Assembly: GCA_016190205.1 (NCBI GenBank)
Contig: JACPQZ010000013.1
Span: forward strand, 1 to 61,458
From: Candidatus Omnitrophota bacterium
GTDB lineage: Bacteria > Omnitrophota > JACPQZ01
DNA length: 61,458 nt
Direction of reading: 5' to 3'
Shown here: in pieces, positions 1,153 through 28,105 of the stretch
Numbering within the stretch: the stretch's first letter is position 1
How the letters are laid out: each line of letters begins with the position of its first letter
Made by a program: the position numbers and the translations under genes
Notes under the pieces: model-generated
What the model was told of the DNA's origin: nothing
What the model saw: the letters and a program-made list of their open reading frames with translations, nothing else
Databases searched by the model: none

Positions 1153-1837
1153 GTCCTCCCTCGTCTTTTGGAGACACTGAAACCAACTTCATGGGCGCTG
1201 GTGGAAGGGCAATGATCTTTTCCTCAGGGACTCCCAACTCCACCAGCCTCTGGATGACGTCCGCTTGAGGGCGCGGCGTTGTAACAATAACACGATCGCA
1301 TTCAACAATAACCGCATAACCGATACTCCGTACGATGTGCCCAAAGAAACGTGTTCGATCAGAACATCCATCCACGACCCCTACCAGCTCAAGACCCATC
1401 TCCTGCAGGGTCAGGAACGCGATCTCGGCCAGCTCCCCGGTCCCGTACAAAAGGATCCTCCGCTGTCCATGACGGGCGAGCTCACCGACGTGCTGCCGGA
1501 GAAAAACCCGGACGTCCTTATAAAATGAAAGCGAGCACTCGATGTACTCGCATGTCAGCCTGGCCTTTTCAATAATCCCCTTCGGCGTTATCAAGTACCG
1601 AATACGGGTCTTTTTGACGCTGATGATCTTGATGTAACCCTTGACGACCAGCCTTTTAATCAAGAGATTCGTGAAACCTAGAGCGACGCCAATCCGCCGT
1701 GATAAGTCCCGCTGAGTTAAATGCGGACTGGATGCCACGGCATCCAAGAGGCGCATATCGTAATAGTGGGCAGGAATAGGTGCAGGAATAGGTGCCGAGC
1801 TATTAGCGGGCGTTTTGTGCTCTTCTGTGTCGGTCAA
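1145..1837 (-). CDS. MarR-family winged-helix regulator, EPS-associated type, with C-terminal Rossmann-like domain
   Basis: LTQRDLSRRIGVALGFTNLLIKRLVVKGYIK...RYLITPKGIIEKARLT; C-terminal RILLYGTGELAE; lies in a polysaccharide locus; start uncertain. Confidence 0.8.
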   Translation of the reverse strand: MTDTEEHKTPANSSAPIPAPIPAHYYDMRLLDAVASSPHLTQRDLSRRIGVALGFTNLLIKRLVVKGYIKIISVKKTRIRYLITPKGIIEKARLTCEYIECSLSFYKDVRVFLRQHVGELARHGQRRILLYGTGELAEIAFLTLQEMGLELVGVVDGCSDRTRFFGHIVRSIGYAVIVECDRVIVTTPRPQADVIQRLVELGVPEEKIIALPPAPMKLVSVSPKDEGGLG

Positions 1838-1891
1838 TGATGCTGTCTCAAATTGTGGGAGGAACTATGGGATTTACCTAGATAAGGTGAA

Positions 1892-1931
1892 CGTTCAGCT
1901 TGTGAACAGCCTAGCGTTCATTGAGTGAACA
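1892..1931. promoter_or_regulatory. Tandem palindromic operator cGTTCA-N5-TGAACa x2
   Basis: GTTCAgcttgTGAAC at 1893-1907 and GTTCAttgagTGAAC at 1916-1930, 23 bp apart, in the AT-rich region upstream of the MarR gene. Confidence 0.6.
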
Positions 1932-2089
1932 TCTTAAAAAGCAAAATACAAGATTTTTTCGCATGTGTCAATTATAAATATTACACGTTGATTTTTCTTT
2001 GTGCTAAGCAAGTATTATTAACTATGCTAATATAATACGACTATACGACAATAACCATGACTGTTATGTTTAAAATCATGGATAAATAA

Positions 2090-2785
2090 TTAAAACATGC
2101 GGCTCCTCGACACGACCCACAGGGCCCACAGACCGTCAACCCAGGTAATCTTTTTTCCCTCCTTTTTCGTGCGCGGCTCATAACTCACCGGCACCTCATA
2201 TATTTTAATCCCCCTGCGGAGGACCCCTGTAGTCAACTCGGGATCGATACCGAACCTCTTTTCCCTCAAATTCAAGTCCTTGGCCAGACAAAGGTTGAGC
2301 ATTTTGTAACACGTTTCAACATCGGTCAGATGCGTGCCGTAAATGATATTGACCCATCCCGTGACTATCACATTCGCCAGGCGGTTGAAGAGGGATAACC
2401 GCCTGCCCATCTTCATAAACCTGGAACCGTAGACAACCGCGTAACCGCCCTCCTCCGCCGCCTTGAGTAACTTCAAGATATCCCGCGGGTCATATTCCAG
2501 GTCTGCATCCTGTATCACCACACGTTGACCTGTAGCCTTTTTCAGCGCCGTCCGAATCGCCGCACCCTTGCCCTCATTCCTTATGTGAAACAACTTGATG
2601 CAGTCTGTATCTTGGAGACGGTCCCTCACAATACCGGCGGTGCCGTCGGAAGAGCCGTCGTCTACGATAATAATTTCTTTGTCGATGGGAAGGCGGAGGA
2701 GTTGTTCTAAAAGCGCCGTAAGGGTGTGTTTTTCATTATAAGCGGGCACGAGGATGGACAGTTTTCCAAATCCCTTTCCCGTCAC
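2090..2785 (-). CDS. GT2 glycosyltransferase (DPM-synthase/ArnC-like)
   Basis: LSILVPAYNE, VDDGSSDGT, NEGKGAA, QDADLEYDP, GSRF, TDVETCYK. Confidence 0.9.
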   Translation of the reverse strand: MTGKGFGKLSILVPAYNEKHTLTALLEQLLRLPIDKEIIIVDDGSSDGTAGIVRDRLQDTDCIKLFHIRNEGKGAAIRTALKKATGQRVVIQDADLEYDPRDILKLLKAAEEGGYAVVYGSRFMKMGRRLSLFNRLANVIVTGWVNIIYGTHLTDVETCYKMLNLCLAKDLNLREKRFGIDPELTTGVLRRGIKIYEVPVSYEPRTKKEGKKITWVDGLWALWVVSRSRMF

Positions 2786-6858: not shown

Positions 6859-7832
6859 GGCACAGCCACGCGTCCGCGCTTCAAGTTCCGCCACCAGCCC
6901 TCGTGGGACCGGTACCACGCCACCGTTTCCTTAAGTCCCTGCTCAAAGGGTATCGAAGGAGCCCACCCCAACCGCCTCACCTTCTCATCCCGCATCGCAT
7001 AGCGCCGGTCGTGCCCCGGCCGGTCGCTCACATGCCGGATCAGGGATTCGTCCCGGCCCATCCATCTCAATATGGAACGCGCCACCTCGATATTCTCCCA
7101 CTCATTTCCGCCCGCCACGTTGTAGATCTGGCCGGGAGCGCCCTTTTCCAGGATGCACAAGAGGGCGCGGGCGTTGTCCTCCACGTTGAGCCAGTCGCGC
7201 CGGTAGCGGCCGTCTCCGTAAACAGGCAGGGGTTCTCCATCGATCGCCTGCGTGATGAAAAGCGGGATCATCTTTTCGGGATATTGAAGGGGGCCGTAGT
7301 TGTTGGTGGAACGCGCAATGTGGACGGGAAACCGGTGGGTCTTAAAGTACGAGAGGGCCAAGAGATCGCCGGAGGCCTTGGTCGCAGAATAGGGATTGGT
7401 GGGGGCCAGCGGGTCTTCCTCGGAGGCGGCGGACTCGGCGATGGAGCCGTAGACCTCGTCCGTGCTGACATTCAAAAAGCGCGGGACCTTTTGCCGCCGC
7501 GCCTCTTCGAACAGGGAGTACGCCCCCAAGACATTGGTGCGCACGAATCCCGAGGCATCCTGAATGGAACGGTCTACATGGGATTCGGCGGCGAAATGAA
7601 CCACCGCCTCACACCCTGCCATGGCCTCGCGGACGGCGGCGGGGTCCGCTACGTCACCCCTCACCCACTGGTGCCTCCCGCTCCGGTCTAACTCCTCGAG
7701 AGTCTCCTCATTCCCCGCGTACGTCAGTTTGTCCAGATTGACGACATCCACACCGGGACGCTCCCGAAGGATCAACCGGACAAAATGGCCTCCAATGAAC
7801 CCTGCCCCTCCGGTGACGAGCCACCTCGGCAT
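6855..7832 (-). CDS. rfbB: dTDP-glucose 4,6-dehydratase
   Basis: [50 protein letters not shown]. Confidence 0.95.
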   Translation of the reverse strand: MPRWLVTGGAGFIGGHFVRLILRERPGVDVVNLDKLTYAGNEETLEELDRSGRHQWVRGDVADPAAVREAMAGCEAVVHFAAESHVDRSIQDASGFVRTNVLGAYSLFEEARRQKVPRFLNVSTDEVYGSIAESAASEEDPLAPTNPYSATKASGDLLALSYFKTHRFPVHIARSTNNYGPLQYPEKMIPLFITQAIDGEPLPVYGDGRYRRDWLNVEDNARALLCILEKGAPGQIYNVAGGNEWENIEVARSILRWMGRDESLIRHVSDRPGHDRRYAMRDEKVRRLGWAPSIPFEQGLKETVAWYRSHEGWWRNLKRGRVAVP

Positions 7833-8593
7833 CAGGGCTCCACACGAGCGGGCTGCCCGTGTACACGCTCTGCGATGAGCGTGTTGGCACGCAGAAGGGA
7901 ATCAAAAGTCCCCGCGTCTGACCAGAATCCCTTCAATATATCAAACGTGAGGCACCCCATCCGCAGATACGCCGTGTTCACATCCGTGATTTCGAGCTCC
8001 CCGCGGCCGGAGGGTTTGAGATCACGGACGATGTCGAAAACCTCTCCGTCGTACATGTAGATGCCGGTGACCGCAAAGCGCGATGCCGGGACCCTGGGCT
8101 TTTCCTGAATTTCCACAATCCGATCGCCCTCAAATGTCACGACCCCAAAGCGCCCCGGATCATCCACCTCCTTAAGCAAAATCTTGGCCCCCCGCGGCTG
8201 ACGGCGGAAGTCCTCCACATAGGGGGCGATGGTATCCTCGACGATGTTATCGCCCAGAATAACAACCAGTTTCTCACCCCGGGCAAAATTTTCAGCAATG
8301 GAGAGGGCCGCCGCAATACCTCCTTCCCCCTCTTGGTACGCGTATGTGATGTGTTCCAGCCCAAAATCACGCCCGTTCCCCATCAACCGCAGGAAATCGC
8401 CGGAGGAAGTTCCCCCCGTCACAATCAGGATGTCCCGTATCCCCGCCTTGACCAGCGTCTCGATGGGATAAAAAATCATGGGTCTATTGTAAATGGGCAG
8501 AAGGTGCTTGTTCGTCACGCGCGTCAAAGGCGCCAGACGCTTGCCTAAACCGCCTGCAAGAATAACCCCGCGAACCGCATGCCGATCAGCCAT
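7832..8593 (-). CDS. rfbA: Glucose-1-phosphate thymidylyltransferase (short form)
   Basis: GVILAGGLGKRLAPLT, NKHLLPIY, LGDN, EKP, RGELEITD, WSDAGT; start reset to ATG 8593. Confidence 0.92.
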   Translation of the reverse strand: MADRHAVRGVILAGGLGKRLAPLTRVTNKHLLPIYNRPMIFYPIETLVKAGIRDILIVTGGTSSGDFLRLMGNGRDFGLEHITYAYQEGEGGIAAALSIAENFARGEKLVVILGDNIVEDTIAPYVEDFRRQPRGAKILLKEVDDPGRFGVVTFEGDRIVEIQEKPRVPASRFAVTGIYMYDGEVFDIVRDLKPSGRGELEITDVNTAYLRMGCLTFDILKGFWSDAGTFDSLLRANTLIAERVHGQPARVEP

Positions 8594-9068
8594 CTTGGGT
8601 CCCCCAGACATAAGGTATCTCGGATGAATGCGGGTCCACCCGAAACTCATCCGGACTGTCATAGTGGTACAACTCACTGGACACATTGATGATGAGCGCC
8701 TCCTCGTCCCCTATCCCCTCCATCCCATGCAGCACGAATGGAGGGATGCGCAGCAAGATAGGTTGATGGACGCCCATAAAAAACTCGTTGACGGCCCCAG
8801 AGGTGGGCGAGTCCTTTCTTCCATCGTAGAGGACCACCTTCACCATGCCTTGCACACATACAAAATGATCCACCTGCTTTTTGTGGTAATGCCAGCCCTT
8901 CACGACGCCCGGGTAGACGGAGGTCATGTACACCTGCCCGAAAGAAGTGAAGAAAGGGTCGTCTGACCGGACCATTTCCATCAGCCGCCCGCGGCCGTCC
9001 GGCAGGACCTTCAGCTTTTTGACCTCAACCCCGTCTATCAGGTTTTTGGGGGCGGCCGATACCGACAT
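8586..9068 (-). CDS. rfbC: dTDP-4-dehydrorhamnose 3,5-epimerase family cupin
   Basis: DGRGRLMEM, VKGWHYH, LYDGRKDSPT, IPPFVLHG; within rml cluster. Confidence 0.85.
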   Translation of the reverse strand: MSVSAAPKNLIDGVEVKKLKVLPDGRGRLMEMVRSDDPFFTSFGQVYMTSVYPGVVKGWHYHKKQVDHFVCVQGMVKVVLYDGRKDSPTSGAVNEFFMGVHQPILLRIPPFVLHGMEGIGDEEALIINVSSELYHYDSPDEFRVDPHSSEIPYVWGTQDG

Positions 9069-18540: not shown

Positions 18541-20028
18541 ATGGCACTCGAAACCAGACTGACGCAGAAGCTCACAACCCAGCTCACCCTTACCCCCCAA
18601 CTCAAGTTATCCATAGATATCCTCCAACTCCCCATCCTGGAGCTTGCCGCAAGGATCCAGCAGGAACTTGCTGAAAATCCTGTTTTAGAGGAAGACGACG
18701 ACTCCCGCTCCGCCGAGCCTTCCGATCGCCCAGACGGCGAAGCCTCCCGCAATAAGATGGAGCAGGAGTGGGATGCCAAGGACGTGGCACTCGCCAACCT
18801 CGTGGAAAGCTGGAAGGAAAGCTTTCAGACATCCCTCAACGAACGCCCTGAAGATATCCAGTCAAAGTTAGATTATTTAGAAACCCTGATTTCAAAGCCG
18901 CCCACCCTGGCCGAGCACCTCCTCCATCAATACGGCCTGATATCATCCGGCGAAGAGGAGAAAAGAATTGCGGAAACCATTATAGGAAATTTGGATGAAA
19001 ACGGCTATCTGAAATCTACTATAGAGGAAATGGCCCAAGATCTGCAAAAAGAGCGGGGCCTAGTGGAGGAGGTCCTTAAAAAGGTGCAGGGGCTTGACCC
19101 GCCCGGAATCGCGGCCCAGGACCTCAAGGAGTGCCTGATCCTTCAGCTCGCCCGGCTTCCCCAATCCAACCCACGACTCATCGCGGAAAGAATCGTGCGC
19201 GGGGCGCTGGCCTTCCTCGAGAAAAAGCAGTTTGCCAAGATAGCGAGGGCGCTTTCGCTCACGCAGACTGAAGTCGCCCACGCCGTTCGGGTCATCTCCG
19301 AACTGGAGCCCAAGCCGGGCCGCCGCTTCAGCAATGAGCGGGTGATCGCCGCCGTGCCGGATGTGGTCATTCTGGACAAAGACGGCGAACTCAACCTCGC
19401 CGCACGGGATGAAGACCTGCCCCGCTTGAGGATCAGCGAGCGCTACCGCAGGATGCTCAAGGACCCCCGTCTGGACAAGCAGGCAAAAGATTTCATACGG
19501 CAAAAAATGCAGCTCGCGGCCGGCTTCATCCGCGCCGTCGATCAGCGCCACACGACGCTCATCCGCATTGCCAAGGAACTCGTAACCACGCAGAAACTCT
19601 TTCTCGAGAAAGGCATTGAATACTTAAAACCCCTGCGCCTTAAAGACATCGCCCGCGCCACGGGCCTGCATGAATCCACCATCAGCCGCACGGTGCAGAA
19701 TAAATACATTGAGACGCCCAACGGGGTTTATCCGCTCAAGCACTTTTTCAGCCGGGCCATCCCGTCCCAAAACGGAGATCCCATGAGCCAGGCCAGCATT
19801 AAAGACCGCATCCGGCGCCTGATAGACGAGGAAAGCCCGGGCGAGCCCTTGAGCGACGCCCAGGTCACCCGCGTATTAAAAAGCGACGGCGTGGCCATTG
19901 CCCGCAGGACGGTGGCAAAGTACAGGGAGGAGCTCAAGATTCCGCCTACCCATGAGCGCAGGAGAAAAGATAGACATGAAACCGTTATGAGGGAGGAGAG
20001 AGGAAGGAAGAGAGATGAGAAGGTTTAG
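18541..20028 (+). CDS. rpoN: RNA polymerase sigma-54 factor
   Basis: Q/L-rich region I, ENPVLE, IGNLDENGYL, HESTISRTVQNKY, RpoN box ARRTVAKYREEL. Confidence 0.97.
   Translation: MALETRLTQKLTTQLTLTPQLKLSIDILQLPILELAARIQQELAENPVLEEDDDSRSAEPSDRPDGEASRNKMEQEWDAKDVALANLVESWKESFQTSLNERPEDIQSKLDYLETLISKPPTLAEHLLHQYGLISSGEEEKRIAETIIGNLDENGYLKSTIEEMAQDLQKERGLVEEVLKKVQGLDPPGIAAQDLKECLILQLARLPQSNPRLIAERIVRGALAFLEKKQFAKIARALSLTQTEVAHAVRVISELEPKPGRRFSNERVIAAVPDVVILDKDGELNLAARDEDLPRLRISERYRRMLKDPRLDKQAKDFIRQKMQLAAGFIRAVDQRHTTLIRIAKELVTTQKLFLEKGIEYLKPLRLKDIARATGLHESTISRTVQNKYIETPNGVYPLKHFFSRAIPSQNGDPMSQASIKDRIRRLIDEESPGEPLSDAQVTRVLKSDGVAIARRTVAKYREELKIPPTHERRRKDRHETVMREERGRKRDEKV
19989..20023. repeat. Purine-rich degenerate heptamer run in the rpoN 3' end
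   Basis: gagggag gagagag gaaggaa gagagat gagaagg. Confidence 0.55.
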
Positions 20029-20540: not shown

Positions 20541-20708
20541 GTCGTGAGGGGTGTGTGATGGGTGGTGAGACAGACCCATCACCCATCACTCAACACACAC
20601 GACAAACGTTGCTCGTTCTGAAATCGCTTCACGAGCGACGCTTCACGCACCCCGCACCCCGCACAACGCATCCCGCACAACGCGCCCCGCACAACGCATC
20701 ACGCAGCT
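20541..20708. repeat. Two heptamer arrays (ACCCATC hairpin type; CGCWCNN type)
   Basis: acccatc acccatc actcaac acacacg at 20574, with an inverted partner gtgatgggt; 12 CG-phased units from 20625 (cgcttca cgagcga cgcttca cgcaccc cgcaccc cgcacaa...). Confidence 0.9.
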
Positions 20709-21079
20709 AAGAGGTCCCTCACCTCTTGCACGAACTTTTTGGTCTCGATGGGCTTGATGATACAGCGATCGAAACCCGCCGCGCGGATCTTCTCCTGCTC
20801 CTCTCTCATGGCGAGCGCGGTCCAGGCAATGACCTTGACCGACCTGGACTTTTCCTTCGCGCGCACGGCCTTGAATAGTTCGAAGCCGTCCATATCCGGA
20901 AGATTGATGTCCATGAGAATAAGGTCCGGAGTTTCCGTCTTGAGCATCTGAAGGAGCTCCTGTCCGCTTTGAGCGGTGACCGCGCACATCCCGTGGAGCT
21001 CGAGGAGATCTACCGACAACTTGCGGTTCATCACATCGTCGTCCACCACGAAAATCTTCTTTTTCATATCGTCAGCCAT
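20699..21079 (-). CDS. Single-domain response regulator (CheY/DivK-like)
   Basis: IFVVDDD, DLILMDINLPDMDG, WTA, IKP. Confidence 0.93.
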   Translation of the reverse strand: MADDMKKKIFVVDDDVMNRKLSVDLLELHGMCAVTAQSGQELLQMLKTETPDLILMDINLPDMDGFELFKAVRAKEKSRSVKVIAWTALAMREEQEKIRAAGFDRCIIKPIETKKFVQEVRDLLAA

Positions 21080-21106
21080 TTCGAGTTACCCCCTCCTACC
21101 CTGTGG

Positions 21107-23425
21107 TTATGCGGCTTTCTTGCATGGCTCCCCCAGCGCTCGGTGAACTTCCCTAAGAAGGTCATTCTTGGAAACAGGTTTGGTGAGCGTATCCGCAGCA
21201 CCCAGGGCCCGGGACCTGGTCCGGTCGCCCATGGTGCTGATCATAAGAACAGGGATGGCTTGGGTCGTCTGATCTTTCTTGAGTTCAGTCAAGACCTCCC
21301 AGCCGTCCTTCTTAGGCAACATGACATCCAGCGTCACGAGGTCCGGACGCGCCTTTTTTGCCAAATCAAATCCCTTCACACCATCCTGCGCCACCTGAAC
21401 CTGGTAGCCAGCTTTCGAAAGGAGTGCGGAGATGAGCTTGGCGGCCTTAGGATCGTCCTCTATCACCAGAATCCTGTTCCCCCGGCCCGTGTGCGGTAGC
21501 GGTCCGGCCTCAACCAGCGCCTCGATGCCCCGAGAAACCTCGCCCTTGTTTGCCCCTGCGGGACCCTTAACCGGCAAGGCAAATGAAAAACAGGTCCCCT
21601 TGTCTTTCCCTTCGCTCTCAAACCAGAGCTCGCCTCCGTGGAGTTCGACCAGTTTTTTCGCGAGCGGCATCCCGAGCCCGGTCCCCGCATACTTTCTGGA
21701 GTACGCGCTGTCGATTTGCTCAAATTCAGCAAAGACCTTGTGACGGTCCTTTTCTTCAATACCGATTCCCGTGTCCCGGACTGAAAAAATGACCGTGCCT
21801 GTGTCGCGCTGGCCGGCCTCAATACTGATCCGGCCCCCTTCAGGCGTAAACTTGGTTGCGTTGGAAAGGAGGTTAAAGAGGATCTGCTTGAGCTTACGCT
21901 TGTCGGCGCGTAGTCCGCCCACGCTGTCCGCAATAGAGGCGGAAAGCTTGAGCCCCTGCTTGAGGGCCCTTTCCTTGATGATCGTGATGGCGCTTTCGAC
22001 GACCTCCCGAACGTTTACTTCTTCAAGCTCCAGCTCGAGCTTTCCCGCCTCCACCTTGGCGAGATCCAAGATGTCATTGATGAGCGAGAGGAGATGCCGT
22101 CCGCTCTCCAGGACATCCGTGACGTACTCTTTTTGCTTCGGGTTCAAAGCGCCGAAGCTCTCGTCCCGGAGGATCTCGGAAAATCCTATAACCGAATTGA
22201 GCGGGGTTCGGAGCTCATGCGACATGTGCGACAAAAACTCCGATTTGGACTTGCTGGCCGCCTCCGCCGCCTCCTTTGCGAGCTTAAGGTGCTGCTGGGA
22301 ATCAGAGAGGTTTTGCGCCATCTCGTTAAAGCTGGCCCCGAGAAGCCCCAGCTCATCTTTTGAACTCAAGCGGGCGCGTGCCTCGAGGTCTCCCGCACCT
22401 ACACGACGCGCCGCCCCGACCACAGCGCCCAGCGGGCCCGTGATACGTCGGGCGACGAGGAGACTCGCCAGCATACCTAAGAGGAGCACCCACCCCAGCA
22501 CCACCCACTCGTTGTGGATCATGGTGTCGATCTTCGCCACCGCTTCCTGTGTCAATTGATCCGTCAGCCGGTTGATCTTCTCCAGTATCTGCGCATTCAG
22601 GCGGCTGACCGAGCCCGCCGCAGAACGCACCTCCGGCACGCGGCTTAAGATAAGGTCCACATCCTGCGAAATCGGTCGATAGGCCTCCCGTATCTCTTCA
22701 AGCTGCTGGCGCACCGCGGGCGACTCCACCCCTTCTAGACCCAACTCCTCCGAGCCATTGAGGAGTCCGGTAATGATCTCGCTGACCAACTGGTTGAGCT
22801 CGGCGAGCTCCTGCCGCGCCCCATCGTCACCCCCCCAATAGGCGAAGGCCGCCTTTGCAATCCTCTGTCCCAGGGCGTCAAGCTCCGAGGCAAAGGCAAT
22901 GTCTTCCGCCCCGAGCCACCCAGCTCCCATCCCCTCAATCAGGCGGCTGAAGAGCCGGGAAACGAGCGGGATGCGACCGGCCAGATCCTCCAGGGCCAGG
23001 TGTACCTCGGGCATCTGACGCATCAAATCCATAAACCGCTTTCTCAAATCCTCCCAGCGCGCCGATATTTCATCACACTGAATACGGGCCTCCGCCTTGA
23101 AGGAGGTGGCCGATTCAATCCGGCTCACATGGATCTTGAGATCCGCCAGACTGGCTGCGTAGACGGACATGAGATTCTCCAGCACTGGGATGCGCCCGAG
23201 ATCGCCCGAGCGGAGGGCATGGGCCTCCTTGGACATCTTCTGAACAAGAAAGCGCAGTTCCCCCCCAGCCTTTATCATCTGCGCATCCTCGGCCTGGGTC
23301 TGCATCGTAGTGACCGTATAGGTCACGACGTAAGTCAATGCGATGGCGAAGAGCGAGCTCAACAGTATGAGTTTGCCGCCGATGGTAAAACCGCGTACTT
23401 TAAAAACCGCGACTTGCCGTGTCAA
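21107..23425 (-). CDS. Hybrid sensor histidine kinase (PilJ/NarX-like sensor, HAMP, HisKA, HATPase, REC)
   Basis: Two TM segments; DAQMIKAGGELRFLVQKM; SKDELGLL; SHELRTPLNSVIGF; NLLSNATKFT; DTGIGI; GTGLG; C-terminal REC IEDD/LDVMLP. Confidence 0.93.
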   Translation of the reverse strand: MTRQVAVFKVRGFTIGGKLILLSSLFAIALTYVVTYTVTTMQTQAEDAQMIKAGGELRFLVQKMSKEAHALRSGDLGRIPVLENLMSVYAASLADLKIHVSRIESATSFKAEARIQCDEISARWEDLRKRFMDLMRQMPEVHLALEDLAGRIPLVSRLFSRLIEGMGAGWLGAEDIAFASELDALGQRIAKAAFAYWGGDDGARQELAELNQLVSEIITGLLNGSEELGLEGVESPAVRQQLEEIREAYRPISQDVDLILSRVPEVRSAAGSVSRLNAQILEKINRLTDQLTQEAVAKIDTMIHNEWVVLGWVLLLGMLASLLVARRITGPLGAVVGAARRVGAGDLEARARLSSKDELGLLGASFNEMAQNLSDSQQHLKLAKEAAEAASKSKSEFLSHMSHELRTPLNSVIGFSEILRDESFGALNPKQKEYVTDVLESGRHLLSLINDILDLAKVEAGKLELELEEVNVREVVESAITIIKERALKQGLKLSASIADSVGGLRADKRKLKQILFNLLSNATKFTPEGGRISIEAGQRDTGTVIFSVRDTGIGIEEKDRHKVFAEFEQIDSAYSRKYAGTGLGMPLAKKLVELHGGELWFESEGKDKGTCFSFALPVKGPAGANKGEVSRGIEALVEAGPLPHTGRGNRILVIEDDPKAAKLISALLSKAGYQVQVAQDGVKGFDLAKKARPDLVTLDVMLPKKDGWEVLTELKKDQTTQAIPVLMISTMGDRTRSRALGAADTLTKPVSKNDLLREVHRALGEPCKKAA

Positions 23426-23673: not shown

Positions 23674-24192
23674 GTGCCAATGCTTACATTTGCCAAAGAT
23701 AGTTCAGAAATGCGCTTGTCGCCAGGCGGGGCGGTCTTTCTGCGGACTGCCTTTATCGCACTTTATCTCCTGGGGTGCGCGTCTGCCCCGGCTCAAGAAG
23801 ACAAGTCTCAAGTGAAAGATCCTTTTCCGCTTGAAGAGCCCTGGGTTGAGGCCCTCCCTGTGCCTTACGATCCGGAGCTTGAGCAGCAGATCCAGGAGGT
23901 GCAGGAGTCAATTAGCACGCTTCACGAGCAGATGGTCCGGAGGAAGGCCGCGTTGGAGCAGGCTTTAGAGCCCGGCGAGGAAGGCCGCATACGGGAGGAG
24001 CTCTCACAACTCAAGCACGAGCGGGATGCCCTTGAAAAAATGTTACACAACCTCGTTGACGAGGCCAGGGCGTCCGAATGGACCAAGATAGACGAGGCCT
24101 TAAAGCGCACGCGCCGGCTGGATATCCTGGAGGATAGAAAGGAGCGCAAGGAAGAAGCGGTGCGCGATAAACGCGATGAAGAGCTGCAATAA
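23674..24192 (+). CDS. Predicted coiled-coil lipoprotein
   Basis: Lipobox-like LYLLGC; long charged helical body; start may be ATG 23710. Confidence 0.65.
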   Translation: MPMLTFAKDSSEMRLSPGGAVFLRTAFIALYLLGCASAPAQEDKSQVKDPFPLEEPWVEALPVPYDPELEQQIQEVQESISTLHEQMVRRKAALEQALEPGEEGRIREELSQLKHERDALEKMLHNLVDEARASEWTKIDEALKRTRRLDILEDRKERKEEAVRDKRDEELQ

Positions 24193-25249
24193 CCTGCGTA
24201 CGAAATCTCAGAGGGTTTTAAGCGGGCTCGTGTGGGCCCTCTTCTTTTGCCTGTTCACGCAATCGGTCCTGGCCCAGGAAAAAGAGCTCCCTCCCTTGAC
24301 GGCAACCCTCTCGACCGAGCAGGCCCTGGCCGCCATCAAGGAAAGGGCCAAGAAAATCGTCGAGGCGCGCAAGAAAGCTAAGCGGCTTAAAATATCTGGC
24401 GAGCTCTCCACCGTGGCCGCATATGAAACCAACCCTTCCAACGGCGCCACTCACAAGGGTGATACGTATTTTGAGGAGGACGCCTCGGTCACCCTCTCCA
24501 AGAAGCTCTCGAATACTTGGCGCTGGAATGCGAGCTACAGTGAATCCTATATCAGTTATCTCGAATACACCGACGGGACCTACTTCACCCAGACCTTGAC
24601 TGCCAGCAAACTGACATGGAACCCAGGCAAGATGTGGCGACTGGAAGGCTGGACGGACTTGGACTACAACTGGTATCCGCGCTCGAACGGTTCCAGCTAC
24701 CGCCAGATTAAGCCGGTGGGACGCATCCGGCAGAATTTAACCGATATCTTCTTCCACCAATTGCAATACGAATGGTTTTTCCGGGACTACATCGATAAGA
24801 GCGCCGACGATGGAGAGGGGACGGATACCGAAGACAGACGCCACGATATCCGTGACCGCCTCCGGTACAAGGTGGGGGCCACCATCCACGACTGGCTTTG
24901 TACCGTTGAGAACGCCTGGTACTCGAATCAGTCCAATGACCAGCGCGAGGATTACTACGATTATGACGTCTACAAGGTAACGGGCTCGCTCAACGGTGAT
25001 CTCACAGAGAAGTTAAGCGTGAGCCTTAGTTACGCCTGGGAGCGCAAAAACTACGAGCACCGGCTGGTGAGCAATCTTGACAATGCCCGTTACGACGATA
25101 AGAACTCCATTACCCTCTCGGCCACCTACACCATCAATGACGACTGGAAGGTGGGGGGCAAGGTCGACATTAATGACCTGGAATCCAACCAGCCGAGCGG
25201 CGAATACACGGACATCACAAACAGCCTCACTGTAACCCGCAGCTTTTAG
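24176..25249 (+). CDS. Outer-membrane beta-barrel protein of unknown family
   Basis: Signal peptide, short basic helix, many Tyr/Trp-rich alternating strands, C-terminal Phe (NSLTVTRSF). Confidence 0.78.
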   Translation: MKSCNNLRTKSQRVLSGLVWALFFCLFTQSVLAQEKELPPLTATLSTEQALAAIKERAKKIVEARKKAKRLKISGELSTVAAYETNPSNGATHKGDTYFEEDASVTLSKKLSNTWRWNASYSESYISYLEYTDGTYFTQTLTASKLTWNPGKMWRLEGWTDLDYNWYPRSNGSSYRQIKPVGRIRQNLTDIFFHQLQYEWFFRDYIDKSADDGEGTDTEDRRHDIRDRLRYKVGATIHDWLCTVENAWYSNQSNDQREDYYDYDVYKVTGSLNGDLTEKLSVSLSYAWERKNYEHRLVSNLDNARYDDKNSITLSATYTINDDWKVGGKVDINDLESNQPSGEYTDITNSLTVTRSF

Positions 25250-25276
25250 CGGCCCGCAAGAATCCTTAAAATGAAG

Positions 25277-25307
25277 CCCCCCTTTCCCGGTAAACGGGAA
25301 AGGGGGG
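25277..25307. terminator. Hairpin terminator between convergent genes
   Basis: cccccctttcccg-gtaaa-cgggaaagggggg (13-bp stem), T-rich flank. Confidence 0.75.
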
Positions 25308-25332
25308 TTGTCTTTTGCTTTTAAACCGCGGT

Positions 25333-26769
25333 CTACAGTATCGGGGTGTGGCCGTGGCCCAAGTGCTCCGCAACCTCTTCGGGCGTGAAGCCCTCGAAGC
25401 TGTGTTCGTTAGGATCGGGATCGGGATCGGGCTCCGGCTCTGGCTGTGGCTCGGGCTCCGGCTGTGGCTCGGGCTGTGGCGGAGGAGGAGGCGGCGGGAT
25501 ATAGTTGTCATAATTTTGATTTTCGAAATCCCGCGGCTCAAAATCCTGATAATTCTGCTCGAAGTCCTGGAAATTTTGCTCAAATTCCTGGTAATTCTGT
25601 TCGAAGTCCTGGTGATTCTGTTCGAACTCCTGGGAATACTGCTCGAACTCCTGCGAAAATTGCTCGAACTCGTTCGAGTACTGCTCGAAGTCCCCCATAT
25701 TTCCCTCGAACTGCTCGGGGCCCATGCCTTCGAACTGCTCTGGGTGAAAGCCCTCGAAATGCTCGGGGTTCATCCCTTCAAACTGCTCGGGGTTAAAGCC
25801 CTCGAACTCCGTCCCGATGCCGTCTTGAAATAGCTCACCCATCTCGCGCATCAAGGACTCGCGGGTAGCGGGGTCAGCCGCCTCCCAGGTCTGCCGCATC
25901 TCATTCATTTGCTCAAATTCGGCCTGGCTGATCTCACCGCTCGCAAGGGCTTCCTGGAGATCCCCCTCGGTGGGGGCTTGCATTTCCCCTATGGGGCCCT
26001 GAAATTCACCCATGGGACCCTGAAATTCCCCGCCGGGGCCGGGACCGCGAAATTCCCCGCCGGGACCGCGAAATTCACCCATCGGGCCTTGAAATTCCCC
26101 GGCGGGACCGGGACCACGAAATTCACCGGGCCCTCCGAACCGCTCGGGACCGCCCCTGTAGGGGCCTTCACCTCGAGAAAAGCCCTCAAAGCCGAGTTGT
26201 GCCATGTGTATTTCGCGCTCGCCGGCCCCCCGGCTCAACGCCTCCCCTTCCCACTCGCGGAACATCTCCCGCGCGTGCTCCATCATTTCCGGAGAAGGCA
26301 TATAGCGCTCGCCGACCTCAAAAGCGGCCATGGCCCTTTCCCCCTCTTGAAGCATAAGCTCCATTTCCTGGGCCGCTTCCGGATCTACAGCCCTAAGCCG
26401 CTCGATCTCCGCCAGGGCCTGGCCCTGGTTAAGCTCAAATTGCTCACGGGCCGCCTCGCGCACCTGGGGCGGGATCTCGACACTAAGATCGCGGCCGGAC
26501 CGCATGATGTCCGCCGCTTCGCGCACCACCGCGGCGCGCTCCATCGGGTCCGTCACGCAGTCCTCCGCCAGATCACGCACGGCCCCCGCAAGCTCCGCGT
26601 CCTGCGCGAGTTCCGGATCGTTCTCGATGTAGGCCTCGACAGCCGCTGCGAGAACCGGGTCCGTGGTTGCCAATTGAGCCTGGGCGGTCTCTAGATATGC
26701 AGGATTTAATACCAGCGCCATAGCGAGCGCGAGGTGCGTCGAAACCTTAAGTGCGGTACCCATATTCAT
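25333..26769 (-). CDS. Secreted acidic multi-repeat protein (GPGGEF, FEGxxPEx and EQYSQEF-type repeats, Pro-rich linker)
   Basis: Signal peptide, AAGGGAGATG RBS; nucleotide and peptide repeats visible; His-containing C-tail. Confidence 0.8.
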   Translation of the reverse strand: MNMGTALKVSTHLALAMALVLNPAYLETAQAQLATTDPVLAAAVEAYIENDPELAQDAELAGAVRDLAEDCVTDPMERAAVVREAADIMRSGRDLSVEIPPQVREAAREQFELNQGQALAEIERLRAVDPEAAQEMELMLQEGERAMAAFEVGERYMPSPEMMEHAREMFREWEGEALSRGAGEREIHMAQLGFEGFSRGEGPYRGGPERFGGPGEFRGPGPAGEFQGPMGEFRGPGGEFRGPGPGGEFQGPMGEFQGPIGEMQAPTEGDLQEALASGEISQAEFEQMNEMRQTWEAADPATRESLMREMGELFQDGIGTEFEGFNPEQFEGMNPEHFEGFHPEQFEGMGPEQFEGNMGDFEQYSNEFEQFSQEFEQYSQEFEQNHQDFEQNYQEFEQNFQDFEQNYQDFEPRDFENQNYDNYIPPPPPPPQPEPQPEPEPQPEPEPDPDPDPNEHSFEGFTPEEVAEHLGHGHTPIL

Positions 26770-26793: not shown

Positions 26794-27888
26794 TTACATA
26801 GGCTGCGGTTCGTATTCCTCTGGATTAGGCCTTTCCTCCACCTCGACCGGTTGATCAAAATCGAGGTCGAGTTCGATGGTCTCATGCTCGTATTCCGGCG
26901 CGTCGTACTCGTGCTCCAACTCTGGAGTTTCGTAGTCCGCCTCCGGGGCTTCGTAATCCGGCACCTCTGACTCATTTTCGGCCGCCTCAAAATCGCTTTC
27001 TACTGCCTCGTATTCGTGGTCCAGCCCCTCATACTCATTTTCCATGGCTTCGTATTCGTGCTCCATGGTCTCGAAGTCGTGTTCCGCTGAAGGTGCTTCG
27101 TAGTCCGATTCCTGGGCCTCGTGATCTGTCAATCCCTCCATCTGGGATTCGTTCTCTTCTCCCGGATCTCCGTAAAAATCTGATGGCTCGTACTCGTCAT
27201 TCCGAAGCGCGTCTTCTTCCCCACTGTAATCCACCCACTCCGATGGCTCGCTATTTTCCAAGTATTCGTTCTCCAACTCAAAACCAGAGTCCCGGAGCTC
27301 GCTCCCCCACCGCTCCTCCATCTCTTGACGGAACTGCTCGAATTCCTCCGGAGCAAACTCTCCGTGCTCTTCGCCCGTGAAGGGGTTCTCCGTCTCCCAC
27401 TGCTCTTTCATGATGGCCTGTTCCCCGGGGGTCGCGTTTTCGTACTGCTCCCACATCGCTTTTTGCTCGTCCGTCATCTCTCCAGGCAGTCCCTCTCCAC
27501 CCTGGCCGTATGGGTCAAACCCCTGATTTTCGAAGATCGGATATCCACCGCCAGGCAGGGTCACCCCCTCCGGCAGCAGGCCTCCCTGAGTCAGGAGCTC
27601 CGGGGTACCCTCTCCCAGGTTTCCACCTTCACCTTCCTGGCGGAAAGACTCCATGGCATCACGGGCAAGGGCCTCCGCTTCTTCAAGGCTTAATCCATGC
27701 TCCGCTTGCAAGTTAGCGACGAGGTCCTCGAAGCTCACCCCCTCTGCCCCACCCTCGGATAACGAGGCGGCATCGGGACTCACCGCATCCTCTGCCTCAT
27801 CAGCCGCTTGAACGGCGGGTGCACCTAAAAGAATTAAACCCAAAATGAGAACGCTCAAAACTTCCTTCAGCCACTCTGTACGGCTCAT
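26794..27888 (-). CDS. Secreted Glu/Asp-rich low-complexity protein with HEYEA-type heptads
   Basis: GAGGAGAG RBS, signal peptide ending AVQA, E/D-dominated body with few K/R. Confidence 0.8.
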   Translation of the reverse strand: MSRTEWLKEVLSVLILGLILLGAPAVQAADEAEDAVSPDAASLSEGGAEGVSFEDLVANLQAEHGLSLEEAEALARDAMESFRQEGEGGNLGEGTPELLTQGGLLPEGVTLPGGGYPIFENQGFDPYGQGGEGLPGEMTDEQKAMWEQYENATPGEQAIMKEQWETENPFTGEEHGEFAPEEFEQFRQEMEERWGSELRDSGFELENEYLENSEPSEWVDYSGEEDALRNDEYEPSDFYGDPGEENESQMEGLTDHEAQESDYEAPSAEHDFETMEHEYEAMENEYEGLDHEYEAVESDFEAAENESEVPDYEAPEADYETPELEHEYDAPEYEHETIELDLDFDQPVEVEERPNPEEYEPQPM

Positions 27889-27920: not shown

Positions 27921-27950
27921 AAAAAAGCCCTTTCCAGTTAAGGAAAGGGC
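27921..27950 (-). terminator. Intrinsic terminator, riboswitch expression platform
   Basis: Minus strand GCCCTTTCC-ttaact-GGAAAGGGC-TTTTTT, ~30 nt upstream of the 27888 start codon. Confidence 0.85.
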
Positions 27951-27977
27951 AAAATAGTATGGTTAAGCTTTAACCAC

Positions 27978-28060
27978 CTGGCAACTGGCTATCCGCCAAA
28001 CAGCGCGGCGGACCCTATAGCTTTGCGCCCCCGCCTTACGACGGGTTTGCCCTTTTCAGG
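27978..28060 (-). promoter_or_regulatory. c-di-GMP-I (GEMM) riboswitch aptamer
   Basis: Minus strand GGGCAAACCCGTC-GTAA-GGCGGGGGCGCAAAGCTATAGGGTC...GATAGCCAGTTGCC: GGCAAAC, GNRA-capped stem, CGCAAAGC and AGCCAG-TGCC hallmarks. Confidence 0.92.
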
Positions 28061-28076
28061 AAATCATCTAACTAGA

Positions 28077-28105
28077 AGTGTACCGCATAAAGTCGTAAGA
28101 TGCAA
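28077..28105 (-). promoter_or_regulatory. sigma70 promoter driving the riboswitch leader
   Basis: Minus strand TTGCAT-17 nt-TACACT ending ~17 nt before the aptamer. Confidence 0.65.

Follow-up and report, generated by a model that had tools for sequence, protein, structure and literature searches.

What kind of gene system carries a bacterial protein whose C-terminal part is stacked from short aromatic repeats, and what could such repeats do? The question arises in a 61,458-nucleotide (nt) stretch of contig JACPQZ010000013.1 from a Candidatus Omnitrophota bacterium (the window), in whose coordinates positions are given unless another locus is named. The gene in question (25333..26769, minus strand) is an open reading frame (ORF) with a ribosome-binding site, GGGAGGAG, and an ATG; it has homologues P0001–P0028 and encodes an acidic secreted protein of 478 amino acids (aa). 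Our observations concern its gene structure, repeats, family, predicted helix and disorder, riboswitch and synteny. With high confidence, the locus holds a riboswitch-controlled operon whose two products are exported, polyanionic and repetitive, and synteny links it to a dedicated outer-membrane barrel. Both the protein family and the gene module are new and unannotated, and the type of regulation, in which riboswitches for cyclic di-GMP (c-di-GMP) control envelope proteins, is a known one.

A two-gene operon for exported polyanionic proteins

The gene is the second of a two-gene operon behind the riboswitch. A signal peptide at residues 1–32 (26674..26769, minus strand), with a cleavage-type site AQA/QL, was read from the sequence and from alignment A1, in which the homologue signal peptides end AWA/QL, and the product appears to be Sec-exported. 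The mature protein has an isoelectric point of ~4.1 and a net charge of ~−76. The first gene (26794..27888, minus strand) encodes a 364-aa secreted partner with a net charge of ~−97, which carries 7-residue repeats of the type [HD]EYEAx and contains the segment EEFEQFRQEMEERW. A strong bidirectional intrinsic terminator (25275..25309) is common to this operon and to a convergent operon for an outer-membrane protein.

A word-based homologue search with the partner found only the partner itself. Positional orthologues with (H/R)EYEAPT repeats are present at loci L001, L007 and L016, and their orthology is proposed from position and the shared EYEAP repeats. The Pro in these repeats argues that the periodicity of the partner is not helical. 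The partner at L016 also contains a helix of the type found in the 478-aa protein, REQYREMSEQYQAEFE. At L001, a gene at 6926–8851 (plus strand) lies between the riboswitch and the acidic partner gene; its 641-aa product consists almost entirely of DxDxDG thrombospondin-type-3-like calcium-binding repeats and gives a weak MtsC-type match, below the cut-off.

A conserved c-di-GMP riboswitch leader

The aptamer of a c-di-GMP-I riboswitch lies at 27976..28060 (minus strand), 88 nt upstream of the ATG of the 364-aa partner and on the same strand. It scores 64.7 bits against 59 with RF03167 and 65.4 bits against a cut-off of 35 with RF01051, and the Rfam alignment shows that it keeps the canonical pocket segments CGCAAAGC and GGGCAAACC; it is predicted to bind c-di-GMP (clan CL00126). 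The label 'c-di-GMP-I-GGC variant' was rejected because the canonical model scores equally well and the pocket segment is the canonical CGCAAAGC; a ligand of the GGC variant was not found in the literature.

An aptamer stands upstream of the operon in all ten loci with upstream DNA, namely the source locus and L001, L005, L007, L008, L009, L010, L016, L019 and L020. The leaders compared include 27921–28066 of the window (minus strand), L001 6826–6985, L007 6455–6610, L008 1020–1182, L009 6870–7030, L016 11440–11596 (minus strand), L020 3430–3588 (minus strand), L010 1–142 and L005 1–137. The layout is the same in every one of the ten: the aptamer, a short hairpin, a CCCUUG...CAAGGG terminator with a U-run, the ribosome-binding site and the start codon. 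In the source locus, the terminator hairpin and U-run of the expression platform occupy 27921..27950 (minus strand), between aptamer and ribosome-binding site. The terminator is directly 3′ of the aptamer and both coexist in the minimum-free-energy fold. The hairpin between them is conserved in structure and not in sequence.

Two segments of the leaders, GGG-N-CGC in the aptamer bulge and GCG-N′-(A)-CCC at the 5′ base of the terminator, are complementary, and the Rfam consensus shows N as unpaired. The N:N′ pair varies among the leaders as U:A (three), G:C (four) and A:U (one), a compensatory covariation, and the covarying pairing is conserved in eight of the nine leaders other than the source, with L019 as the exception. 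Cognate pairings reach −13.4 kcal/mol compared to −11.3 kcal/mol for non-cognate ones, and 4 of 5000 permutations reach the cognate mean, the kinship of the loci being uncontrolled in this comparison. The covariation argues for an antiterminator that competes with the ligand-stabilised aptamer, and hence for an OFF switch; we consider it probable that the operon is transcribed when c-di-GMP is low. A 10-bp complementarity in the source leader, AAAGGGCAAA/UUUGCCCUUU, was also considered as the conserved antiterminator; it is real, but it is not conserved in the other leaders.

A weak sigma-70-like site, TTGCAT-17-TACACT (28077–28105, minus strand), ~10–45 nt upstream of the aptamer, is below the scan threshold and was read by eye. 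The source genome contains three more c-di-GMP-I aptamers, at C34:117314–117399 (plus strand), C34:101932–102000 (plus strand) and C66:5494–5578 (minus strand). Those on C34 precede small paralogous ORFs that share the pattern DYLDKIGKDALFS.G.KLSR.K.ISAM, one of them followed by a PilZ-like ORF of 109 aa. Downstream of the C66 aptamer are a 415-aa ORF and genes for several small exported proteins. An overview paper on Omnitrophota makes no mention of c-di-GMP or riboswitches.

Distribution of the family and its neighbours

Family searches, both word-indexed and exhaustive with HMMER, returned homologues in about 20–30 clusters, all of them unannotated. Matches of the exhaustive phmmer search beyond the roughly 20 true family clusters were discarded as unrelated low complexity, for example LRGLDPQQ or PEPEPE repeats. 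All eight matches in the species-genome collection are metagenome-assembled genomes of Omnitrophota, two of which are labelled Planctomycetales. The family was found in 4 of 401 sampled genomes of the phylum and in none of the 40 nearest genomes examined; as judged by these searches, it is restricted to a few Omnitrophota lineages. Alignments of the homologues reveal four conserved elements, which are a ~170-residue N-domain, a middle module with 'SGQMTPEQLQMA', an (F)ENQNYDN motif (ENxNYD in 13 of 25 full-length members) and a His-rich C-terminus. The repeat material between these elements varies from protein to protein and includes GPGGFEYQ, GGWEAPT, NYGINPATGGWEP, FEGFMPPEG and others.

Two genes on the opposite strand converge on the riboswitch operon and are co-distributed with the acidic-protein family. 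One encodes a 357-aa outer-membrane protein (24176..25249, plus strand), modelled by AlphaFold2 as a 14-strand barrel preceded by a basic N-helix at residues 47–68 (predicted local distance difference test, pLDDT, 86). This helix is conserved, with a charge of +9/−3 over the 26 residues 45–70. Foldseek places Vibrio OmpT, CymA and OmpG as the best matches of the barrel, at template modelling (TM) scores of ~0.5–0.6. Membership of the BBP2_2 or EpsL porin families was rejected on score (PF10082, 15.6 vs 23.7; TIGR03014, 30.8 vs 275); three homologues of the barrel carry a precomputed PF10082 match. The other gene (23674..24192, plus strand), which overlaps the start of the barrel gene, encodes a co-conserved 172-aa exported protein of coiled-coil type. 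Lipoprotein status was considered for this protein from a lipobox-like LLGC and dropped, as the motif is not conserved in its homologues.

The four-gene arrangement is kept at L001, L007 and L016, and L022, from another family of the phylum, has three of the four genes in a short stretch. At L022 (genome G217), positions 1492–2610 (minus strand) encode a 372-aa protein with a different N-terminal domain, the same ENQNYDN motif and an HDHNNDG...HYDVNADGIADHAHATPH tail, and its gene adjoins the same barrel type and a partner with ERPTMERE repeats. As the head differs and the tail and barrel are kept, the C-terminal module seems to travel with the barrel independently of the head.

Composition and history of the repeat arrays

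The initial annotation, made from the window alone, had described a stacked repeat architecture at 25333–26160. All of the elements it listed are found in the translation of the 478-aa ORF, in the order given; the repeats do lie in that interval, which covers only residues 204–478, the C-terminal 275 residues of the gene product. Upstream of them is the family-defining, all-helical N-terminal domain (residues 33–200; 26170..26673), conserved in alignments A1 and A2. All features of the protein are on the minus strand.

Seven GPxGEF[RQ] units at residues 213–264 (25978..26133) read, in order, GPGEFR, GPGPAGEFQ, GPMGEFR, GPGGEFR, GPGPGGEFQ, GPMGEFQ and GPIGEMQ, arranged as a 23-residue super-repeat. 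They are followed by a three-helix middle module with a SHOCT-like motif (residues 265–315; 25825..25977), in which 'SGQMTPEQLQMA' is conserved in homologues. Four FEG[FM]xPE[QH] octamers (FEGFNPEQ, FEGMNPEH, FEGFHPEQ and FEGMGPEQ, residues 322–353) form a 16-residue super-repeat and, with a degenerate fifth, extend to residue 360 (25690..25806). Seven FEQxxQ[ED] heptads then occupy residues 361–409 (25543..25689), where an amphipathic helix with a stripe of F and Y is predicted. A degenerate eighth heptad and the family-conserved (F)ENQNYDN motif (25501..25542), a Pro/Glu/Asp linker, IPPPPPPPQPEPQPEPEPQPEPEPDPDPDP (25411..25500), and the His tail, NEHSFEGFTPEEVAEHLGHGHTPIL, with its HxxHxH motif HLGHGH (25336..25410), complete the protein at its C-terminus. 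The arrays and the linker were delimited by translation and Tandem Repeats Finder, which reports at the DNA level 21 nt × 7.5 copies, 24/48 nt × 4.3/2.2 copies and arrays of 21/27 nt.

The heptads had been described as carrying F or Y at both core positions. F does occupy position a in all seven; the second aromatic is at d in heptads 1–3 and at e in heptads 5–7, and heptad 4 has His. The heptad periodicity is uninterrupted, as in canonical coiled coils, and the array contains no helix breakers and a continuous aromatic stripe. Its net charge is −16 over residues 361–416 (56 residues, with the degenerate eighth unit included), and it has no basic residue.

The heptad units are identical to one another at 12–19 of 21 nt, and the codon differences in the invariant F-E-Q columns are all synonymous (TTC/TTT, GAG/GAA, CAG/CAA). 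This restriction to synonymous changes suggests that the repeat is under protein-level selection rather than a product of raw slippage, and that the pattern was kept after duplication. Many homologues have one helix of the type SPEQLEQYREMAEQYQQEFE(Q)N immediately N-terminal to ENQNYDN. The heptad array itself is not conserved among the orthologues, most of which have the aromatic helix once or twice, and this points to a lineage-specific amplification in the source genome. In P0005 and P0019 the aromatic turns number two to six and include Arg or Lys, the stretch in P0019 being longer; the array of the source genome exceeds all others in length and alone lacks basic residues. From these comparisons, the array is best described as a seven-fold tandem amplification of the amphipathic helix of the family (~EQYxEMAEQYQQEFEN) that precedes ENQNYDN, since kept by selection.

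Predicted structure

An AlphaFold2 monomer model was built with a 28-sequence alignment. The N-domain (residues 33–200) is helical with pLDDT ~80–96 and the middle module (residues 262–312) folds as three helices with pLDDT 79–95, while the GPG and FEGF arrays are disordered (pLDDT 30–37 and 33–46, respectively). The heptads form a single 50-residue helix at residues 359–408 with moderate confidence (pLDDT 62–81). The view of this segment as a zipper or a sticker–spacer assembly, also put forward in the initial annotation, agrees with the long predicted helix and its aromatic stripe, and the predicted disorder of the flanking Gly/Pro/aromatic arrays fits a sticker–spacer description; it is weakened by the lack of conservation of the heptad array among relatives. 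The zipper itself is suggested by the sequence pattern and the monomer helix model. Given a genuine aromatic stripe and a stretch free of helix breakers, an amphipathic helix that binds itself or a partner is plausible. The net charge of −16 speaks against a helix that is stable in isolation, and folding or pairing of the array without charge neutralisation is unlikely.

The full model has no structural neighbour in the PDB by Foldseek (best E 1.7), and sequence-profile matches to the PDB were dismissed as poly-Q noise. No Pfam or NCBIfam model exceeded its cut-off in the 478-aa protein, in its neighbours or in any of the 28 family members. SHOCT (PF09851) membership was rejected at 21.3 bits vs a gathering threshold of 27 (residues 271–288), and only two of the 28 family members have SHOCT matches at E ≤ 0.05.

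The histidine-rich tail

All 25 full-length members have 3–8 His in their last 50 residues, compared to 0.2–1.3 per 50 residues elsewhere. HxH is present in every one of them and HxxHxH in eight, including the 478-aa protein (HLGHGH); DxNxDG-type loops occur in the tails of seven homologues. This enrichment, with HxH or HxxHxH in the tails, makes metal binding plausible. The tail had also been proposed to reuse the octamer, and FEGFTPEE is indeed identical to the first octamer at 19 of 24 nt; 'FTPEE' aligns as well, however, with the conserved 'DFTPEEHTH' of P0006. A further proposal, that the tail is a sorting signal, did not hold for a shared signal of the PEP-CTERM or T9SS-CTD type. In the source genome (1.65 Mb, 92.8% complete), the ORFs include no paralogue, and the FEGx, EFEQ, ENQNYD and tail motifs occur in no other ORF. 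The uniqueness of the tail motif in the genome, together with homologue C-termini that fall into at least three classes, argues against a sorting signal.

Proposed function and alternatives

The explanation we favour, with moderate confidence, is that the 478-aa protein is polyanionic, belongs to the envelope or cell surface and is made when c-di-GMP is low, and that it carries multivalent aromatic, carboxylate and His stickers and a heptad helix gated by neutralisation. The protein has a conserved folded head, composed of the helical N-domain and the SHOCT-like three-helix module, a fast-evolving tail whose short aromatic/Glu/Gly/Pro repeats would act as multivalent stickers, and a conserved His-rich end. 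On its own, the heptad array would be too negative to fold or pair; only if its carboxylates were neutralised, either by a basic partner or by multivalent cations with the aid of the HxxHxH tail, would a helix with an F/Y stripe form and associate. The array could bind another copy of itself, the acidic partner made from the same operon or the basic N-helix of the barrel next to it, and the His tail would bind metal. The two-gene operon would be on at low c-di-GMP, placing both proteins in a low-c-di-GMP programme, and their site of action would probably be the cell envelope or surface, together with the coiled-coil protein and the 14-strand barrel, the latter as an export conduit or anchor. 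Within this explanation, a location outside the periplasm, a need for cations, self-association and the part played by the barrel are what we infer. A bolder version, which we regard as distinctly improbable, would make the locus an undescribed four-gene envelope system of ultra-small Omnitrophota, in which low c-di-GMP leads to two polyanionic proteins that are threaded or anchored by the basic capture helix of the barrel, and a cation-gated Phe/Tyr zipper with His–metal bridges yields a switchable surface coat.

Several points weigh against the favoured explanation. The heptad array is not conserved family-wide and may contribute hardly more than overall charge and aromatic residues. Its association is a proposal from the sequence, and the AlphaFold2 confidence for the array is only moderate, in a monomer model, a type that cannot show a zipper. 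The functional link to the barrel is drawn from synteny, and the 478-aa protein may stay periplasmic, as no known secretion motif was found beyond Sec. In the source leader, the conserved antiterminator pair is replaced by the different 10-bp complementarity. Finally, proteins of matrix or adhesin type are not usually under OFF logic, and a 'surface matrix' role may therefore be wrong.

The most credible of the alternatives, and one that we still consider unlikely, is that both proteins are a periplasmic polyanion or metal buffer, supplying fixed negative charge or acting as carboxylate/His cation stores or chaperones, with repeats that matter by composition only. Their extreme net charges (~−76 and ~−97), the His-rich tails with HxH or HxxHxH, the DxNxDG-type loops in seven homologue tails, the thrombospondin-type-3-like Ca-repeat protein in the L001 operon and the absence of a recognisable secretion signal beyond Sec would all suit such a role. 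It does not account for the strict synteny with an outer-membrane barrel or for specific motifs, F-E-Q and ENQNYDN, that are conserved beyond composition, and the Pfam, NCBIfam and PDB profile scans gave no similarity to CpxP, Spy, ZraP or any metal-binding family. The array could alternatively lack a specific role and be a tolerated low-complexity expansion in a fast-evolving disordered tail, the function residing in the N-domain, middle module and His tail. Repeat type and number do differ in almost every homologue (GPGGFEYQ, GGWEAPT, NYGINPATGGWEP and others) and the source array is unique in its length, but the synonymous-only changes in the F-E-Q columns after duplication and the aromatic stripe kept through the register shift indicate selection on the pattern, and we regard this alternative as improbable.

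Two further alternatives give the heptads a defined assembly. They could be the core of a stable parallel bundle, a homo-oligomeric Phe/Tyr zipper, probably of high order given its bulky aromatic core, that would multimerise the protein and leave the disordered arrays radiating from the stalk. Engineered Phe-zipper bundles exist, and F is invariant at a with a second aromatic at d or e, the 50 residues lack Pro and Gly, AlphaFold2 predicts a long helix, and position e is mostly Ser or aromatic, so that no g–e′ Glu–Glu clash results. Such a bundle is nevertheless quite unlikely, as the charge of −16 over 56 residues meets no compensating basic residue, a uniform core is interrupted by the shift from an a/d to an a/e register and by His in heptad 4, nearly all homologues lack the array, and the Pfam coiled-coil family match to the protein is sub-threshold and low-complexity only. 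A cross-β, functional-amyloid-like assembly, in which the Q/N/aromatic heptads and NQNYDN form extracellular steric zippers and the barrel has a curli- or Fap-like export role, would surprise us most. Q and N make up 18 of 54 array residues, NQNYDN is like short Q/N/Y amyloid-forming peptides, and the dedicated barrel with its accessory protein recalls the Fap and curli loci. AlphaFold2, however, gives a helix and not strands, the high negative charge disfavours stacking, and the Pfam and NCBIfam scans gave no CsgA/B/G or FapC/F homology. Furthermore, the barrel has 14 strands rather than the 12 of FapF, its closest matches being the porin-type Vibrio OmpT and the 14-strand CymA and OmpG, and c-di-GMP OFF regulation is opposite to that of curli.

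Comparison with known systems

In Clostridioides difficile, adhesin and protease genes are under riboswitch control. CbpA of Bacillus thuringiensis is a surface protein controlled by a c-di-GMP riboswitch (PMC7423583). The present locus resembles these systems in that its genes encode exported envelope proteins rich in repeats, have a GEMM-I aptamer in their 5′ leader and are controlled by transcription termination. It differs in that the proteins are unrelated, with no LPXTG and no collagen-binding domains, the host is a diderm Omnitrophota bacterium, the logic is apparently OFF and the cargo is a polyanionic disordered protein pair beside a dedicated barrel.

Heptads with aromatic core positions are also known from Phe-zipper coiled coils, such as engineered Phe-core bundles and the APS dimerisation domain. 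Those have balanced charge and demonstrated oligomers, whereas the array described here is polyanionic, mixed in F, Y and H, register-shifted and predicted from sequence. Phenylalanine zipper is a term in use (PMC8016460). The remaining repeats share short aromatic stickers in Gly/Pro-rich disordered spacers, and rapid repeat turnover, with sticker-and-spacer or elastomeric GPGGX proteins. FG-nucleoporins, flagelliform silk and resilin are examples of these; the 478-aa protein has no sequence homology to them, comes from a bacterium, is exported and strongly acidic, and carries its repeats on a folded head. HxxHxH motifs of streptococcal histidine-triad (Pht) proteins bind zinc. The 478-aa protein likewise has HxxHxH in an extracytoplasmic protein (HLGHGH, and HTIHVH in homologues), although only this short motif is common and there is no Pfam match around it. 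Lastly, the neighbouring barrel is predicted to have 14 strands and an N-terminal segment like CymA and OmpG, both among its best Foldseek matches, at identities of ~10% and TM scores of 0.5–0.6; its N-terminal element differs from theirs in being a conserved, highly basic 22-residue helix.

If the proposed mechanism is true, the array would be a natural aromatic-core helix whose assembly is gated by charge neutralisation, and the barrel a candidate dedicated outer-membrane route for disordered polyanionic proteins. For Omnitrophota, an uncultured phylum whose ultra-small cells may be host-dependent, the locus would also open a first functional way into c-di-GMP signalling. Without the mechanism, the module of riboswitch, operon and barrel is still a clean, conserved and wholly unannotated gene set, and the leader family a clear case of antiterminator covariation. 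We regard the significance as moderate, and greater if either the cation-gated aromatic zipper or barrel-dependent export is true.

Signalling genes next to the module

Just beyond the barrel and coiled-coil gene pair, a hybrid histidine kinase with a PilJ-type periplasmic sensor and HAMP, a stand-alone receiver and rpoN are encoded at 20699–23425 (minus strand) and 18541–20028 (plus strand). A receiver gene flanks the module at L016 too.

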